A DNA stretch of 64,000 nt from Shigella phage ESh25. Shown in pieces: positions 1,227 through 24,540 of this stretch; within the stretch, counting starts at the first letter, position 1, and every line of letters begins with the position of its first letter. Below the pieces are notes generated by a model. That model worked only from the letters and a program-made list of their open reading frames with translations, was not told the DNA's origin and did not search any database. The stretch is from the sequence record ON528735; one strand, 5' to 3'. The position numbers and the translations under genes are program-made.

Positions 1227-1697
1227 TTAATCATGTGTCCACACCCCATCGGTATTTGACCAAAGTCGTTGATTATCTGATCCTCGCCACAGCTTTTTGG
1301 TCGGAAGATTTTTCTCATACTTCCCATCAATAATAACATCAACATATTTAAGCATTTCTAGTTGTTTAATATCTTCAAACTTATATCCTGTCCACAACCA
1401 AATGCTTTTATTGGGATAAAGATTTTTAATAGTTTGAACCACAGAGTGAATCACGTCTCTGTTATCAGGATAAAGAGGGTCACCTCCGGTTATAGTTAAT
1501 CCTTCTATATAATCATTATTCAAACATTCAATTAATTGTTCTAATGTTTCACCGGTGAATGGAATACCATTTCTAGCATTCCATGTTGATTTATTATAAC
1601 ACCCTTCGCATTTATGCAAACACCCCGTAACGAAAAGAACTGTCCTGCATCCAGGACCATTAACAAAGCAGCACGGGTATATTCTGTCATAATTCAT
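1227..1697 (-). CDS. nrdG: anaerobic ribonucleotide reductase activating protein (radical SAM)
   Basis: 156 aa, CxxxCxxC (CLHKCEGC) radical-SAM cluster motif; recalled near-identity to T4 NrdG. Confidence 0.95.
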   Translation of the reverse strand: MNYDRIYPCCFVNGPGCRTVLFVTGCLHKCEGCYNKSTWNARNGIPFTGETLEQLIECLNNDYIEGLTITGGDPLYPDNRDVIHSVVQTIKNLYPNKSIWLWTGYKFEDIKQLEMLKYVDVIIDGKYEKNLPTKKLWRGSDNQRLWSNTDGVWTHD

Positions 1698-2526
1698 TTA
1701 TATATTTCCAATTATAGCCTTCAACACTTTTACGTTCGCCATTTAAACATTTTAAAATATTTCCTTTGCTAGAAATATTAAAATATTTTGCTGCGTCTGG
1801 TATATAATTAAATGTTTTTAAAAGAACACCATCTTTATATGCGCCAAATAAATTAAGAGTATATTTTTCTCGAAGACGCTGATGTTTCCTTTTCATAACC
1901 TCAGGATTTGCATACGCCAACTTCAATGAATTTCTGTGTTTTTCTTTTACTTCAGGTTTTTGCATTGCTAACTTAGTTAGCCTGGAAATTTTATTTCTAA
2001 CTTCGTCAGTTTTCATTGCATTTGACAAATTTAATAAAGTTTTATTTCTAACTTCAGGTTTTTGCATTGCTAACTTAGTTAGTTCTCTATGTCTTTTTCT
2101 AAAATCGTCATCCTTCCATATATTTTTCGATAATTTTGACATAGAGCGGTGAAATAATTCCTTTTCACTGGAATACAATTTAAAAATTTCATCCAATTCA
2201 TCCGCATTAAATCTATCGGTATTCGAGTTTATCATTCTATGAAAGGCATAACACATTTTACTATTGCTTGTTTTAGCTAAATAGTAATGAGCTAACGCAT
2301 GGTCATAATATGACAAATTAACAATATTCCATTTATCTGTTTTATATTCAGGAAATATAGATTTGGGAAGCACGTGATGTGCTTCCGTTTTTCCTTTTAT
2401 TTTAGGATTATTATAATTTTTTGTTATCAAATCAACATATGACAATAGTAAATCATTATTTTCTTCAAATATTAAAGCTAATTTATCATTCACAAAATCG
2501 CAAGGATAAAATCTATCATAATTCAT
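1687..2526 (-). CDS. HNH-family homing endonuclease (Mob-like) inserted between nrdD and nrdG
   Basis: 279 aa; HNH-like motif EAHHVLPKS...N...DHALAHYY; repeated basic DNA-binding modules (LTKLAMQKPEV x2); first 13 codons copy the nrdG start. Confidence 0.85.
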   Translation of the reverse strand: MNYDRFYPCDFVNDKLALIFEENNDLLLSYVDLITKNYNNPKIKGKTEAHHVLPKSIFPEYKTDKWNIVNLSYYDHALAHYYLAKTSNSKMCYAFHRMINSNTDRFNADELDEIFKLYSSEKELFHRSMSKLSKNIWKDDDFRKRHRELTKLAMQKPEVRNKTLLNLSNAMKTDEVRNKISRLTKLAMQKPEVKEKHRNSLKLAYANPEVMKRKHQRLREKYTLNLFGAYKDGVLLKTFNYIPDAAKYFNISSKGNILKCLNGERKSVEGYNWKYINEL

Positions 2527-4340
2527 TGGTGTTTAACCCTATGCATGATTTCTTTATTTTTGCCAAGATTAAATCCGCGCTCGTTCGGATTTCCCAAATA
2601 ACCACATGTTCTTCTTATTGTGTTCATCTTTTTAGGATCAGTTTCTCCACAAATAGAACAAACAAATCCGTTTTCAGTAGGAGTCATTTCATGGGTACTT
2701 CCGCATGTAAAACACTTATCTACTGGCATATTAACACCAAAATAATCTAAATGCTGTGCAGCATAATCCCACACGGCCTCAAGACCTTTTAAGTTATTTT
2801 TCATATCAGGAAGTTCAACATAAGAAATGTGACCACCTGTCGCAATGAAATGATATGGCGCTTCACGAGAAATCTTTTCAAACGGAGTAATATTTTCTTC
2901 TACTGAAACATGGAAACTGTTAGTGTACCAGCCTTTATCAGTAACATCTTTTACGCTTCCATATTTTTCTGTATCGAGTTTACAGAAGCGATAACAAAGG
3001 TTTTCAGCAGGAGTCGAATATAAACTAAAAGCAAACCCAGTTCTTTCAGTCCACTGTTTAAGACGAGCATTCATTTTAGTTAAAATTTCTTGTCCAATAT
3101 CACGACCGACAAGAATATTCAATTCATGAATACCAATGTATCCTAAAGACACTGAACTTCTACCGTTTTTAAATAACTCAATTATGTCGTCATCAGGTTT
3201 AAGACGAACCCCGAATGCACCTTCTTGGTAAAGAATAGGAGCAACAGTCGCTTTAACTCCTTTTAAGGAACTAATTCTACACATCAAAGCTTCAAAACAT
3301 AAATCCATTCGTTCATTGAACAATTCGATAAATTTCTGTTCATTGAACTGTGTTCCAATATAAGAATCTAATGCGATACGAGGAAGATTCAGTGTTACAA
3401 CACCGAGATTATTACGTCCATCAAGAATTTCATTGCCAGTCGAATCTTTCCATACGCTCAAGAAACTACGACAACCCATTGGAGAAACAGGAATAGATGA
3501 GCCAGTGATAGCTTTATTGTTCTTAGCTGAAATAATATCAGGATACATTCTTTTGCTTGCGCACTCTAAAGCAAGTTGCTTAATGTCGTAATTCGGATCG
3601 TCTTTATAAAGATTAACGCCTTCTTCAACGAACATAACAAGCTTAGGGAAAATAGGAGTTATCCCATCACGACCAAGACCTTTAATACGATTTTTCAGAA
3701 TTGCTTTCTGAATCATTCGTTCAGTCCAGTCAGTTCCCGTACCAAATGTAATTGTTACAAAAGGCGTTTGTCCGTTTGAACTAAAGAGAGTGTTTACTTC
3801 ATATTCATAAGCTTGGAATGCATCGTATACATCTTTTTCTGTTTTAGATTGAGCATAATTTAACGCATCAGCGATTTGCCATTTTTCTGCATCCTCAATA
3901 TGTTTTGCATAGGTGCGTTTAACATAAGGAGAAAGTACTTTATCTACATTCGCAAAAGTCGTTCCGCCGTATTGGTGAGAAGCAACCTGTGCAGTAATTT
4001 GTGCCATAATTGCAGTAGCAACGCCAATTGATTTAGGAGTTTCAATCTGTGCATTACCAAGCTTAAATCCGTTCTCAAGCATTCCTTTTAAATCTACTAA
4101 ACAACAATTAGTAAATGGAAGAGCAGGGGAATAATCAATATCATGGAAATGAATAATTCCGCTTTCATGCGCTTTCATAATAAAAGACGGGACCATATTT
4201 TTGGCAATGTGTTTAGACACAATACCAGCCATAAGGTCCCGTTGAGTTGGAAAAACACGAGAATCTTTATTAGCATTCTCGTTTAAAAGGTCTTTATTAG
4301 TTTTATGAATCAATCCTTCAATTTCTTTTTCAATTGTCAT
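2523..4340 (-). CDS. nrdD: anaerobic ribonucleoside-triphosphate reductase (glycyl radical enzyme), continuous ORF without intron
   Basis: 605 aa uninterrupted ORF; C-terminal glycyl-radical region and Zn-ribbon cysteines; recalled near-identity to T4 NrdD. Confidence 0.95.
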   Translation of the reverse strand: MTIEKEIEGLIHKTNKDLLNENANKDSRVFPTQRDLMAGIVSKHIAKNMVPSFIMKAHESGIIHFHDIDYSPALPFTNCCLVDLKGMLENGFKLGNAQIETPKSIGVATAIMAQITAQVASHQYGGTTFANVDKVLSPYVKRTYAKHIEDAEKWQIADALNYAQSKTEKDVYDAFQAYEYEVNTLFSSNGQTPFVTITFGTGTDWTERMIQKAILKNRIKGLGRDGITPIFPKLVMFVEEGVNLYKDDPNYDIKQLALECASKRMYPDIISAKNNKAITGSSIPVSPMGCRSFLSVWKDSTGNEILDGRNNLGVVTLNLPRIALDSYIGTQFNEQKFIELFNERMDLCFEALMCRISSLKGVKATVAPILYQEGAFGVRLKPDDDIIELFKNGRSSVSLGYIGIHELNILVGRDIGQEILTKMNARLKQWTERTGFAFSLYSTPAENLCYRFCKLDTEKYGSVKDVTDKGWYTNSFHVSVEENITPFEKISREAPYHFIATGGHISYVELPDMKNNLKGLEAVWDYAAQHLDYFGVNMPVDKCFTCGSTHEMTPTENGFVCSICGETDPKKMNTIRRTCGYLGNPNERGFNLGKNKEIMHRVKHQ

Positions 4341-20872: not shown

Positions 20873-21334
20873 TCATTGAGTTTTAATTACTGCTTTAGAA
20901 GCCTTTCCTGGTAAACGACGACTGTTGATAATTGCCATCCTACATTGAAGTGACGGGTTTTTGAACTTCTCATTAGGTTTACAAACCGTAAATCCAAGCC
21001 AAAGATTTCCATCTGTAATTTCCAAACGCCCAGGACGATATTCAACCCCATCAATAAAATCCTCGTCAATGTCAGGACGTGGAGGCATACTCAGGAATTC
21101 ATTAACTTCTAAAACATGGTCTTTTATTTTATGGAATAATTCAAAAACGTATGTCTCATCAATCTCCCGTTGAATTGCGCGATCAAGAAGATGTTGAGAA
21201 TATTTTAGATGAAACGATGAGACCCCTGCTGCTTTTGATGCCTCACGAATCTCATTGTTAATTTGACGAAACTCCGACTCAAAGTGACGACGGAGCTTAT
21301 TTCGACGGATAAAAACTTCTGTGTTGATAGTCAT
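20873..21334 (-). CDS. regB: RegB site-specific endoribonuclease
   Basis: 153 aa; recalled near-identity to T4 RegB; early promoter upstream. Confidence 0.9.
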   Translation of the reverse strand: MTINTEVFIRRNKLRRHFESEFRQINNEIREASKAAGVSSFHLKYSQHLLDRAIQREIDETYVFELFHKIKDHVLEVNEFLSMPPRPDIDEDFIDGVEYRPGRLEITDGNLWLGFTVCKPNEKFKNPSLQCRMAIINSRRLPGKASKAVIKTQ

Positions 21335-21361
21335 GTTATTCTCCTCTTAACTGATAGAAAA

Positions 21362-21391
21362 ATTATACCACAGTCAAGAGGAAAAGTAAAC
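21362..21391 (-). promoter_or_regulatory. T4-type early promoter (-35 GTTTAC, -10 TATAAT)
   Basis: GTTTAC at 21391-21386, TATAAT at 21367-21362. Confidence 0.55.
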
Positions 21392-21393
21392 AG

Positions 21394-21672
21394 TTATTCT
21401 TTAAATCTAATCAATTTATTCATAGACTTTGAAACTTCTGCACGAACCTCATGTAAGTTTTTAAGCTGTTCAAGACGCTGCTCATAGTAAGCAATTTCAT
21501 CTTCTTCGAGACAGTCCTGTGAATCTTCTTTAAGATAACGTGCATAGTCCTGAAAAGCTTTACGGACTACTTCCTGGAAGTCATCAAGACTTTGAATTTT
21601 CTTAGGAGCGGCAGATACACGACGAGGTGCAGTATAATACTCATAACCAAACCCTGCACTTAATTGAGCCAT
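21394..21672 (-). CDS. hypothetical protein (about 92 aa; vs.3 position)
   Basis: ATG at 21672 overlaps the upstream stop. Confidence 0.5.
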
Positions 21673-21935
21673 TAGTATTTTTCCTCTGGTTGGAACACTG
21701 CACGACAAGCCCACATACTGGCTTCTTTGAGTTTCGTTTTAGCAATAGTTAACTGATCGAGGCTTTCAGCATAATTCTTCGCGAGTTCATCATCTTCACA
21801 ATTATCTAGTGCTTCCCAGAATTCATCGTATAAAGCGTCAAAGATAAGTCCTAAACGAACTTCAGCGTCTTTAATAGCATTTACTTTACCGATTTTTTTC
21901 GTCGGTATGTGGCTTATAACCTTTAATATCTTCAA
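21672..21935 (-). CDS. acb2: Vs.4-like protein; candidate anti-CBASS cyclic-oligonucleotide sponge (Acb2-like)
   Basis: 87 aa at the vs.4 position of T4 gene order; T4 Vs.4 is the described Acb2. Confidence 0.5.
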
Positions 21936-22153
21936 TCATATTTGACTTCCTCACCAGTACATAAATCATATTCAACTAAACGAATAGGTTCATGAATGCC
22001 ATATCCTTGAACAGAAATTTCTGTCGTAGGATAAATTCCATTAATATCACCCATATTCCAGGCTTCATTAAATTGCTGTTCGCCTGAATTACTAAACCAC
22101 TCGGCGAAAGCATTTAGCACATCTTTAGAACCTTCAATAATTATCTTTGCCAT
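21932..22153 (-). CDS. hypothetical protein (73 aa; vs.5 position)
   Basis: Intact short ORF. Confidence 0.5.
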   Translation of the reverse strand: MAKIIIEGSKDVLNAFAEWFSNSGEQQFNEAWNMGDINGIYPTTEISVQGYGIHEPIRLVEYDLCTGEEVKYD

Positions 22154-22515
22154 TACAAACTCTCAGTAAAGGTACGAGCAATAACGTCGCGCTGCTGTTC
22201 CGGAGTCAGAGAGTTAAAGCGAACTGCATAACCGGATACACGGATGGTCAGCTGCGGATATTTTTCCGGATGCTTAACTGCATCTTCCAGAGTTTCGCGA
22301 CGCAGAACGTTAACGTTCAGGTGTTGACCACCTTCAATTTTAACTGTAGGCTGTTGCTCAATTTCAATTTCACGGGCATGCAAACCATAGAAAATTTCTG
22401 GGTCTACAAAAGAGTCCTCTTTAAAGGTTTTAGAGACAATAATTCGTGCTTGAATACCATCTTCAAAATAAATAGTACCTTTATGTGTGCCTTCAAGAAT
22501 TTGATATGCTTTCAT
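22153..22515 (-). CDS. autonomous glycyl radical cofactor (GrcA/YfiD-like)
   Basis: C-terminal 60 aa carry the RVSGYAVRF glycyl-radical motif; recalled near-identity to E. coli GrcA C-terminus. Confidence 0.85.
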
Positions 22516-22522
22516 ATAAACC

Positions 22523-22903
22523 TCAATTAGAAAATAAATTTATCCAAGATTGTTCTTTAATTAAAAATGGCTCAGAATCATATGCCATTAAACTTTGGGT
22601 GATTAGTCCTTTAAAAGGCCCATCAATAAATTCCATGGTAAAATATGGAATTTTATTCATTAGCCGTGCATTAGGAGCAGTACACAAAACTCTGCATCCT
22701 TTGAATACGCCTTTTTGTAATTTGTATTGCTTGGGATAAAATTCGCTCAAAATGTTATTATTTGCTAAAATTTCAAAATGATTCACCAATTTATTTTTAA
22801 TAGTTTTTGGCGAAAAATAAAGATATTCGAAAAGCTGAGTGTCTGTCATCATTGCATTCCGATTACGAAAAACTGTGGACGAGTAATACCACCAATGCAA
22901 CAT
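22523..22903 (-). CDS. hypothetical protein (126 aa; vs.7 position)
   Basis: Intact ORF. Confidence 0.5.
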
Positions 22904-23436
22904 TTAATATTACAGCAGCAGTGTACAGTGTCAATATGGACACTATAAATCTTATCCATATCAGGAGATTTGACAGGCTCATCAATTATATACAAAATTC
23001 GCGAAAGCGATAAACCTCTGAACTTGCTTCCTTTATTACCAATAAAACTGCGCACAGAATCAGTAAATAAACGAAAACGTATATCATCATTAGAATAACG
23101 CGAAAATTCCTTTTTAATATTATCTGCGGAAATTTTAGCGTAAGCTGAAGTATTAGAAAGAACAATAACTGTTCCACCGTCATACAACCAATTAGCGGCA
23201 AAATTAGTTACTGCAGTTGATTTACCAGATTGGCGTCCACCATCTAGTCGAAGTGTACAATATTGTTTAAGCAAGTCTTCAAATGGTGGGATATAATCGT
23301 TTTTACAAATTTCTTCTACTCTAGCATCAGAATGGTGTGTAAAAGCATTCATCAGGGATAGATAAGGACCAGTTAAAAATGTTCTCATTTTATTCTCTCT
23401 AAATTTGGGCCATTCCATGGCGCATGAATTGTCCAT
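22849..23436 (-). CDS. small P-loop NTPase-like protein (GRQSGKST); start uncertain (alternative ATG at 23388)
   Basis: Walker A GGRQSGKST and hhhhDEP Walker-B-like motif. Confidence 0.5.
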   Translation of the reverse strand: MDNSCAMEWPKFRENKMRTFLTGPYLSLMNAFTHHSDARVEEICKNDYIPPFEDLLKQYCTLRLDGGRQSGKSTAVTNFAANWLYDGGTVIVLSNTSAYAKISADNIKKEFSRYSNDDIRFRLFTDSVRSFIGNKGSKFRGLSLSRILYIIDEPVKSPDMDKIYSVHIDTVHCCCNIKCCIGGITRPQFFVIGMQ

Positions 23437-23533
23437 TTCTGTATTTACCCATTACCGCACTTGGGCTCGACCTTATTACAGGTTGGCGGGAATCCCTCAC
23501 AGAATCATGAGGTCCAGGTTATTCCCATGTTAT

Positions 23534-23950
23534 TTAAATGTAAATATTTTTGCCGTAATACTTATACCAGTGTGGCTTCATTAAAATTTTTTCATCGAGT
23601 CGTTGTTGACTCAACTTAATAGCTGATTTGCATGGATTATAATCATTTTTCCATTCTACTGGAATATCGCTGATGTCAGGAACTTCAGTATCTTTTATAC
23701 TGAACCCGCGTTTTAAGCATTCCGTTATAATGTCCGATTGACGCTTTCGCAAAAATTCTAACTTATCGTAAAAGAAAGTAACATGACCAGAACCTAAAAT
23801 AAATTTAGAAGATATTTTAAAATCTTTAACGCGCTTACCGTTTGCCACATGCTTACGAACTATACCAAAAACACGCGGCAATTCACGGTATTCTGCGATT
23901 AAATGTTGATCAGCAAGTTCAGATACTAAAGTCAAATTAATACGAGTCAT
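23534..23950 (-). CDS. denV: endonuclease V (pyrimidine dimer DNA glycosylase)
   Basis: 138 aa; recalled near-identity to T4 endo V. Confidence 0.95.
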
Positions 23951-23974
23951 TTTATCCCTCCAAGTAACTGTGAA

Positions 23975-24005
23975 TATACTATCACAATTCTAGGAGAAAG
24001 TAAAC
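23975..24005 (-). promoter_or_regulatory. T4-type early promoter (-35 GTTTAC, -10 TAGTAT)
   Basis: GTTTAC at 24005-24000, TAGTAT at 23980-23975, in the 60-bp e-denV gap. Confidence 0.5.
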
Positions 24006-24009
24006 AACT

Positions 24010-24540
<531 letters not shown>

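Follow-up and report, generated by a model that had tools for sequence, protein, structure and literature searches.

The vs.6 gene of Shigella phage ESh25: a GrcA-type glycyl radical protein predicted to repair host pyruvate formate-lyase, with a 3′ half resembling Escherichia coli grcA

In the 64,000-nt stretch of Shigella phage ESh25 analysed here (record ON528735; hereafter the window), the minus-strand open reading frame (ORF) at 22153-22515, which begins with ATG and encodes 120 amino acids plus a stop codon, is identified by sequence comparison as the ortholog of vs.6 of T4-like phages (Tequatrovirus), also named Y06I or GRCA_BPT4, an autonomous glycyl radical cofactor. The identification draws on the ORF list, the T4 ortholog, and matches to Pfam, NCBIfam, PHROG, and PDB entries. 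Judging from its domain content and by analogy with the T4 protein, Vs.6 very probably acts as a spare part for host pyruvate formate-lyase (PFL) that has been cleaved by oxygen. This much is already known, as the T4 RefSeq record annotates the gene as GrcA and the corresponding UniProt entry is GRCA_BPT4; vs.6 itself therefore adds little, given that reference genomes annotate it and that its T4 ortholog has been biochemically characterised since 2001. The 3′ half of vs.6, a patch of host-like DNA, could merit a small follow-up as a sign that a T4-type phage has recombined with the E. coli chromosome.

The ORF is real, to judge from its intact reading frame, a good ribosome-binding site, and translational coupling to its neighbours. 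A Shine-Dalgarno sequence, GAGG (22521-22524, minus strand), was read directly from the DNA 5 nt 5′ of the vs.6 ATG, where it overlaps the TGA stop codon of the upstream gene vs.7, whose ORF ends at 22523 in the ORF list. The vs.6 stop codon in turn overlaps the ATG of the downstream gene as TAATG, again by direct reading, and such tight coupling is typical for T4-type gene clusters. A scan of 21300-24100 for promoters and terminators gave counts at chance level (11 versus 10.2 expected). The product is a 14-kDa protein in which Gly_radical is the sole domain detected, and neighbouring genes flank the 120-aa ORF. It is identical to T4 Vs.6 (NP_049730) at 118 of 120 positions, shares one 90% cluster with UniProt P13316 (GRCA_BPT4), and occurs in exactly this form on 167 contigs. 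The phage Vs.6 family PHROG 1209 is matched over the full length (211.5 bits, E=5.7e-63, residues 1-120 against profile positions 1-121). A single-sequence AlphaFold2 model of the protein had a mean pLDDT of 34.8 and was unusable.

The 2.1 kb around vs.6 are 97-98% identical to many Tequatrovirus genomes, with phage AR1 as the best match (98.2%), and the AR1 record annotates the counterpart gene as vs.6, "autonomous glycyl radical cofactor GrcA". The gene order in the T4 reference is regB, vs.3, vs.4, vs.5, vs.6, vs.7, vs.8, and denV. From the annotated regions of T4 and AR1 and the PHROG and Pfam matches of the window genes, the conserved neighbourhood comprises regB, vs.3, vs.4, vs.6, vs.7, vs.8, denV, and e. 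Directly downstream of vs.6 lies a 73-aa ORF (21932-22153, minus strand; phrog_1986), the positional counterpart of AR1 ar1_122, for which the AR1 record gives RB32 as the best match; T4 differs at this site, carrying the 58-aa vs.5 where the window, AR1, and RB32 have the phrog_1986 ORF. Two genes downstream of vs.6, at the vs.4 position, an 87-aa ORF (21672-21935, minus strand) matches Pfam Acb2_Tad1_hairpin at 3.3e-15, and a gene in this region is named "anti-CBASS protein 2" in one phage record. Two further minus-strand ORFs, of 138 aa (23534-23950) and 164 aa (24010-24504), which by the T4 sequences and gene order putatively occupy the positions of T4 denV and the lysozyme gene e, respectively, are directly adjacent, with no internal-protein genes in between. 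T4 has ipII and ipIII between denV and e, and AR1 has Ip4 and lacks denV; the stretch 23534-24504 looks like a variable cassette site.

The family matches of Vs.6 lie far above chance. Pfam Gly_radical (PF01228) is matched at 2.5e-18 with 67 bits (cutoff 22.2), and the NCBIfam GrcA model TIGR04365 at 1.2e-45 with 154.9 bits, which is below the curated equivalog cutoff of 170 because the N-terminal half of the protein is divergent. PDB searches retrieved the NMR structure of E. coli GrcA (6OWR) at 9e-42 and aligned residues 58-120 with PFL residues 697-759 at 5e-26 (49/63 identities), whereas the full-length PFL model TIGR01255 is covered only at profile positions 680-744 of 744, where it scores 89 bits and the cutoff is 994. 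An earlier sequence-only reading of this DNA had called 22153-22515 a GrcA/YfiD homolog, as the Pfam, NCBIfam, PHROG, and PDB matches confirm. It had also described the C-terminal 60 residues as essentially those of E. coli GrcA, and they proved identical at all 60 positions. The glycine radical motif that it pointed to is present in the alignment with E. coli GrcA, in the form RVSGYAV, where Gly95 is the predicted radical-bearing residue (codon GGT at 22231-22233, minus strand), based on sequence reading, motif position, and the GrcA and PFL alignments, in which it pairs with GrcA G102 and PFL G734. Vs.6 has no cysteine. As to family membership, it shares with GrcA (TIGR04365/IPR011140) a small stand-alone format, a PFL-type radical domain, and a GrcA-homologous N-terminal half; it scores under the full-length equivalog cutoff, and RefSeq and UniProt still call the T4 ortholog GrcA. 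It is not a PFL, as it has neither the length of ~760 aa nor the catalytic Cys-Cys pair.

The N-terminal half is encoded by a phage-type 5′ half of the gene (nt 1-178, residues 1-59; 22338-22515, minus strand) whose DNA cannot be aligned to E. coli grcA and which has a GC content of 0.34 and a GC3 of 0.20. Compared alone with a profile of 67 bacterial GrcA N-terminal halves, this part of Vs.6 nevertheless scores 17.2 bits, against 6.1 for the best of 1800 shuffles, and the invariant positions Q5, K29, D34, and R48 are common to phage Vs.6 and E. coli GrcA. By this profile evidence the N-terminal half is a genuine and old relative of GrcA, with a similarity that is weak yet above the controls. 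The phage-type version is conserved across several phage families. For E. coli GrcA, PMC8683613 describes the N-terminal half as disordered and as binding cleaved PFL, aiding both binding and activation; since this half matters for those two steps in the bacterial protein, Vs.6 could differ from it in kinetics or specificity.

The mosaic structure of vs.6 is well supported. In a three-way alignment, the sequence switches abruptly to E. coli grcA-like DNA at nt 178/179, and the remaining 3′ half (nt 179-363, residues 60-120 plus stop; 22153-22337, minus strand), which encodes the PFL-type radical domain, has a GC content of 0.48 and a GC3 of 0.43, against 0.44 in E. coli. Local GC reaches 0.45 at the patch, compared with 0.28-0.40 nearby. 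All 5426 of 5426 complete E. coli genomes contain these 185 nt at 97.8% identity, always in grcA, whereas the first 178 nt have no match across the same genomes. Within the patch, nt 179-335 (window 22181-22337) are identical to E. coli grcA over an unbroken run of 157 nt; what few mismatches there are cluster within the final 28 nt. Over the same patch, identity to E. coli grcA is 97.8% for the window vs.6, 92.3% for Citrobacter amalonaticus grcA, and 83.6% for Salmonella grcA, and the probability of a 157-nt exact run at 84% per-site identity is about 1e-12. Both junctions are in frame within a pre-existing homologous gene, and the patch junction falls a short way into the structured domain of GrcA. 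The simplest reading is that the 3′ half of an old phage grcA-like gene was replaced, probably through homologous recombination with E. coli grcA; the identity of 97.8% to E. coli grcA, set against 83.6% between E. coli and Salmonella, speaks for a patch acquired from the host by gene conversion fairly recently.

Among the phages sampled, identity of at least 96% to E. coli grcA was found only in Tequatrovirus and Mosigvirus copies. Mosigvirus vs.6 has the same left junction, with a 3′ half 96-97% identical to E. coli and a 5′ half 89% identical to the window, and a Salmonella-infecting Tequatrovirus has kept the E. coli-type patch, which is 82.5% identical to Salmonella grcA. For copies from Krischvirus, T5-like phages, Slopekvirus, Pseudotevenvirus, Aeromonas phages, and jumbo phages, identity to E. 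coli grcA is in the range 63-84%. Outside Tequatrovirus and Mosigvirus, no GenBank or IMG/VR phage copy was more than 91.3% identical to any gene of the comparison panel, which comprised 81 bacterial grcA genes and no K. pneumoniae grcA. A general tracking of the host by the 3′ half was considered and rejected, as high identity is limited to these two genera and the Salmonella phage retains the E. coli patch. An assembly artefact or host contamination was likewise rejected as a source, since the T4 reference also has the patch, as do hundreds of independent phage genomes. In the copy of Klebsiella phage KP179 (locus L084, 1501-1863), GC3 jumps from 0.20 to 0.54 between the halves, with the left junction as in the window, and the 3′ half has 84% identity to E. 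coli grcA and at best 88% to a gene of the 81-species panel; a second copy (locus L120) has a GC3 jump from 0.27 to 0.59. These two copies may carry a separate host-derived patch whose donor lies outside the panel.

Homologs of Vs.6 were found by tblastn in 1591 phage records, 1538 of them at a coverage of at least 80%. They occur in T4-like phages of Escherichia, Klebsiella, Enterobacter, Citrobacter, and Aeromonas, in T5-like phages, and in a Yersinia jumbo phage, and most of the records already name the protein GrcA or mislabel it pyruvate formate-lyase. Conservation of vs.6 in six of six diverse T4-like genomes was reported in 2006 (PMC1524935). In a T5-like phage (locus L088, 1501-1869) and in Aeromonas phage avDM5 (locus L089, 1492-1860), the grcA-like gene lies within a tRNA gene cluster. 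A set of short IMG/VR "viral" contigs (L164-L174) carries a GrcA-like gene matching residues 16-120 with a GC3 of 0.43-0.59 in both halves; instead of the phage type, these may be grcA genes of bacteria or prophages.

The biochemical basis for the repair function comes from the T4 protein and its E. coli relative. According to PMC8683613, only two spare-part proteins, E. coli YfiD and T4 Y06I, have been validated: both acquire a radical from PFL activase (PFL-AE) and then restore oxygen-cleaved PFL in vitro (PMC8683613, citing Wagner 2001), a rescue that also requires complex formation with the cleaved enzyme. The same paper states that YfiD/GrcA adopts, over residues 61-127, the fold of PFL residues 693-759, and PMC12338860 describes how GrcA G102 passes the radical to PflB C419. 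Since the window protein has the same C-terminal domain and only two differences from the T4 protein, we infer the same mechanism for it. Oxygen attack on the G734 glycyl radical of host PflB would cut the chain, with loss of the last 25 residues. Vs.6, as a copy of the host GrcA radical domain that mimics PFL residues ~697-759, would then dock on the cleaved enzyme, and the host activase PflA, a radical SAM protein, would place a radical on Gly95. Transfer of this radical to PflB Cys419 would again allow pyruvate to be converted into acetyl-CoA and formate. T4 shuts off host expression and degrades host DNA, and an infected cell would therefore be without new GrcA or PFL. A spare part encoded by the phage might thus sustain the fermentative supply of acetyl-CoA and ATP in facultative anaerobes at fluctuating oxygen, for example in the gut; a virulent phage equipped with a repair part for an enzyme of host fermentation presumably sustains energy metabolism in such habitats. 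We infer a benefit of Vs.6 to infection in vivo, and found no in vivo evidence that vs.6 benefits phage infection.

It is extremely unlikely that Vs.6 is a spare part for the anaerobic ribonucleotide reductase of the phage itself, NrdD, activated by the phage NrdG. The window carries both genes on the minus strand: nrdD at 2523-4340, with an uninterrupted 605-aa product (Pfam NRDD PF13597, 1e-171; Gly_radical, 1e-25), and nrdG, encoding the radical-SAM activase of NrdD, at 1227-1697 (Pfam Fer4_12, 1.4e-48; Radical_SAM, 1.2e-7). Between them lies a 279-aa ORF (1687-2526, minus strand) that matches PHROG 655 "homing endonuclease" at 7e-37 and contains HNH-like and NUMOD-like pieces. T4 NrdD is known to undergo the same oxygen-cleavage chemistry as PFL, and Vs.6 and NrdD both have the Pfam Gly_radical domain and are encoded in one genome. 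Spare parts for other glycyl radical enzymes are speculated on in PMC8683613, and a role of vs.6 in nucleotide metabolism was speculated in 2006 (PMC1524935). In addition, a grcA-like gene lies inside or next to an nrdD-nrdG cluster in 5 of the 87 phage loci examined, each of the five belonging to a jumbo phage (L090, 1495-1857, Yersinia phage fHe-Yen9-04; L119; L121; L122; and L136). The L136 match, on a 235-kb contig, covers query residues 50-120 only and lies directly after nrdG. The radical domain of the jumbo-phage proteins is still PFL-type, with RVSGYAVRF, and we read the clustering as a grouping of anaerobiosis genes, not as functional pairing. In the window, the claim that vs.6 sits alongside nrdD and nrdG holds in the sense that all are present, but a distance of 17.8 kb, occupied by about 30 ORFs, separates vs.6 from nrdD, and the two are neighbours only as parts of the same genome. 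The C-terminus of NrdD (CFTCGSTHEMTPTENGFVCSICGETDPKKMNTIRRTCGYLG) has its radical motif as RRTCGYLG, following a CxxC...CxxC pair, whereas Vs.6 is devoid of cysteine, and its radical domain is that of GrcA and PFL. A BLASTP comparison of Vs.6 with the window NrdD gave a best E of 2.6, away from the radical domain; tblastn of the C-terminal domains of Vs.6 and NrdD against the window found only each query itself, and a search of the window for a NrdD-type spare part found none. A spare part must mimic the piece that it replaces; Vs.6 mimics PFL, not NrdD, and a role in servicing NrdD is therefore unsupported. Accordingly, where the sequence-only reading had the phage protein keep radical enzymes working, the main interpretation as a PFL spare part is right and textbook for this gene, in line with what is reported for the 98%-identical T4 ortholog, and its extension to the phage's own NrdD, including activation by NrdG, is not supported by the sequence comparisons.

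Two other accounts bear on the gene as a whole and on its divergent N-terminal half. That vs.6 is a functionless remnant, host grcA DNA picked up by chance, has a probability close to negligible: the near identity of its 3′ 185 nt to E. coli DNA would fit such an origin, as would the fact that vs.6 is not known to be essential for T4 growth in the laboratory, but the ORF is intact, with its ribosome-binding site and gene coupling, the patch joins a pre-existing homologous gene in frame at both ends, the N-terminal half is conserved across phage families, and full-length homologs occur in 1538 phage records. The gene is also kept in all six of the diverse T4-like genomes mentioned above (PMC1524935), and the T4 protein is active in vitro according to PMC8683613. 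It is very unlikely that Vs.6 acts on PFL-family enzymes chiefly in a non-repair capacity, with the phage-specific N-terminal half giving it another role; it might, for instance, load radicals onto PFL or TdcE that is intact but inactive, or redirect fermentation during infection through competition with host GrcA or PflA. An N-terminal half strongly unlike that of bacterial GrcA, yet conserved among phages, is in keeping with this, as are the part played by this half in binding and activation of cleaved PFL (PMC8683613) and the reactivation of full-length inactive PflB G734A by GrcA in vivo (PMC12338860). Against it, the T4 protein is reported as YfiD-like in the reconstitution assay (PMC8683613), and the sharing of Q5, K29, D34, and R48 with E. 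coli GrcA suggests the same basic role. A combined scenario is distinctly unlikely: Vs.6 would be a distinct GrcA branch in which the phage N-terminal half alters target engagement (intact PFL or TdcE, or another activase), and its radical half would have been overwritten by host grcA in the T4/RB69 lineage. Functional retargeting by the N-terminal half is pure speculation; if the scenario were true, the vs.6 locus would be a rare, datable case of gene conversion from a host to a virulent phage. We thus favour the repair of oxygen-cleaved host PFL as the function of Vs.6.

Among known systems, the closest is T4 Vs.6, which has the same length and the same place between vs.7 and the regB-proximal small genes, and differs from the window protein at two positions, with P instead of Q54 and H instead of R73; at the latter, the window protein has the residue of E. 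coli GrcA. E. coli GrcA/YfiD (P68066; 6OWR) is likewise small and stand-alone and has the same C-terminal 60 residues, including RVSGYAV, but the N-terminal half of Vs.6 falls 7 residues short of its counterpart and resembles it only remotely, and vs.6, unlike E. coli grcA, is encoded by a phage, in AT-rich surroundings and presumably under phage expression signals. Residues 58-120 of Vs.6 match the C-terminal domain of PflB (PDB 1H16, 2PFL), which PFL loses, or which is displaced, upon oxygen cleavage. Unlike PflB, Vs.6 lacks the catalytic barrel and Cys418/Cys419. By itself it cannot be an enzyme, so that the label "pyruvate formate-lyase" given in some phage records is a misnomer. NrdD resembles Vs.6 in having a Pfam Gly_radical domain and differs in having RRTCGYLG in place of RVSGYAV, the preceding CxxC...CxxC pair, and an activase of its own, NrdG. 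The short forms GrcA2 and GrcA3 (NF008341, NF038360) match the C-terminal 60 residues of Vs.6 with 94-106 bits, under their cutoffs of 145 and 158; they are ~80 aa long and lack the N-terminal half that Vs.6 has in common with full-length GrcA.
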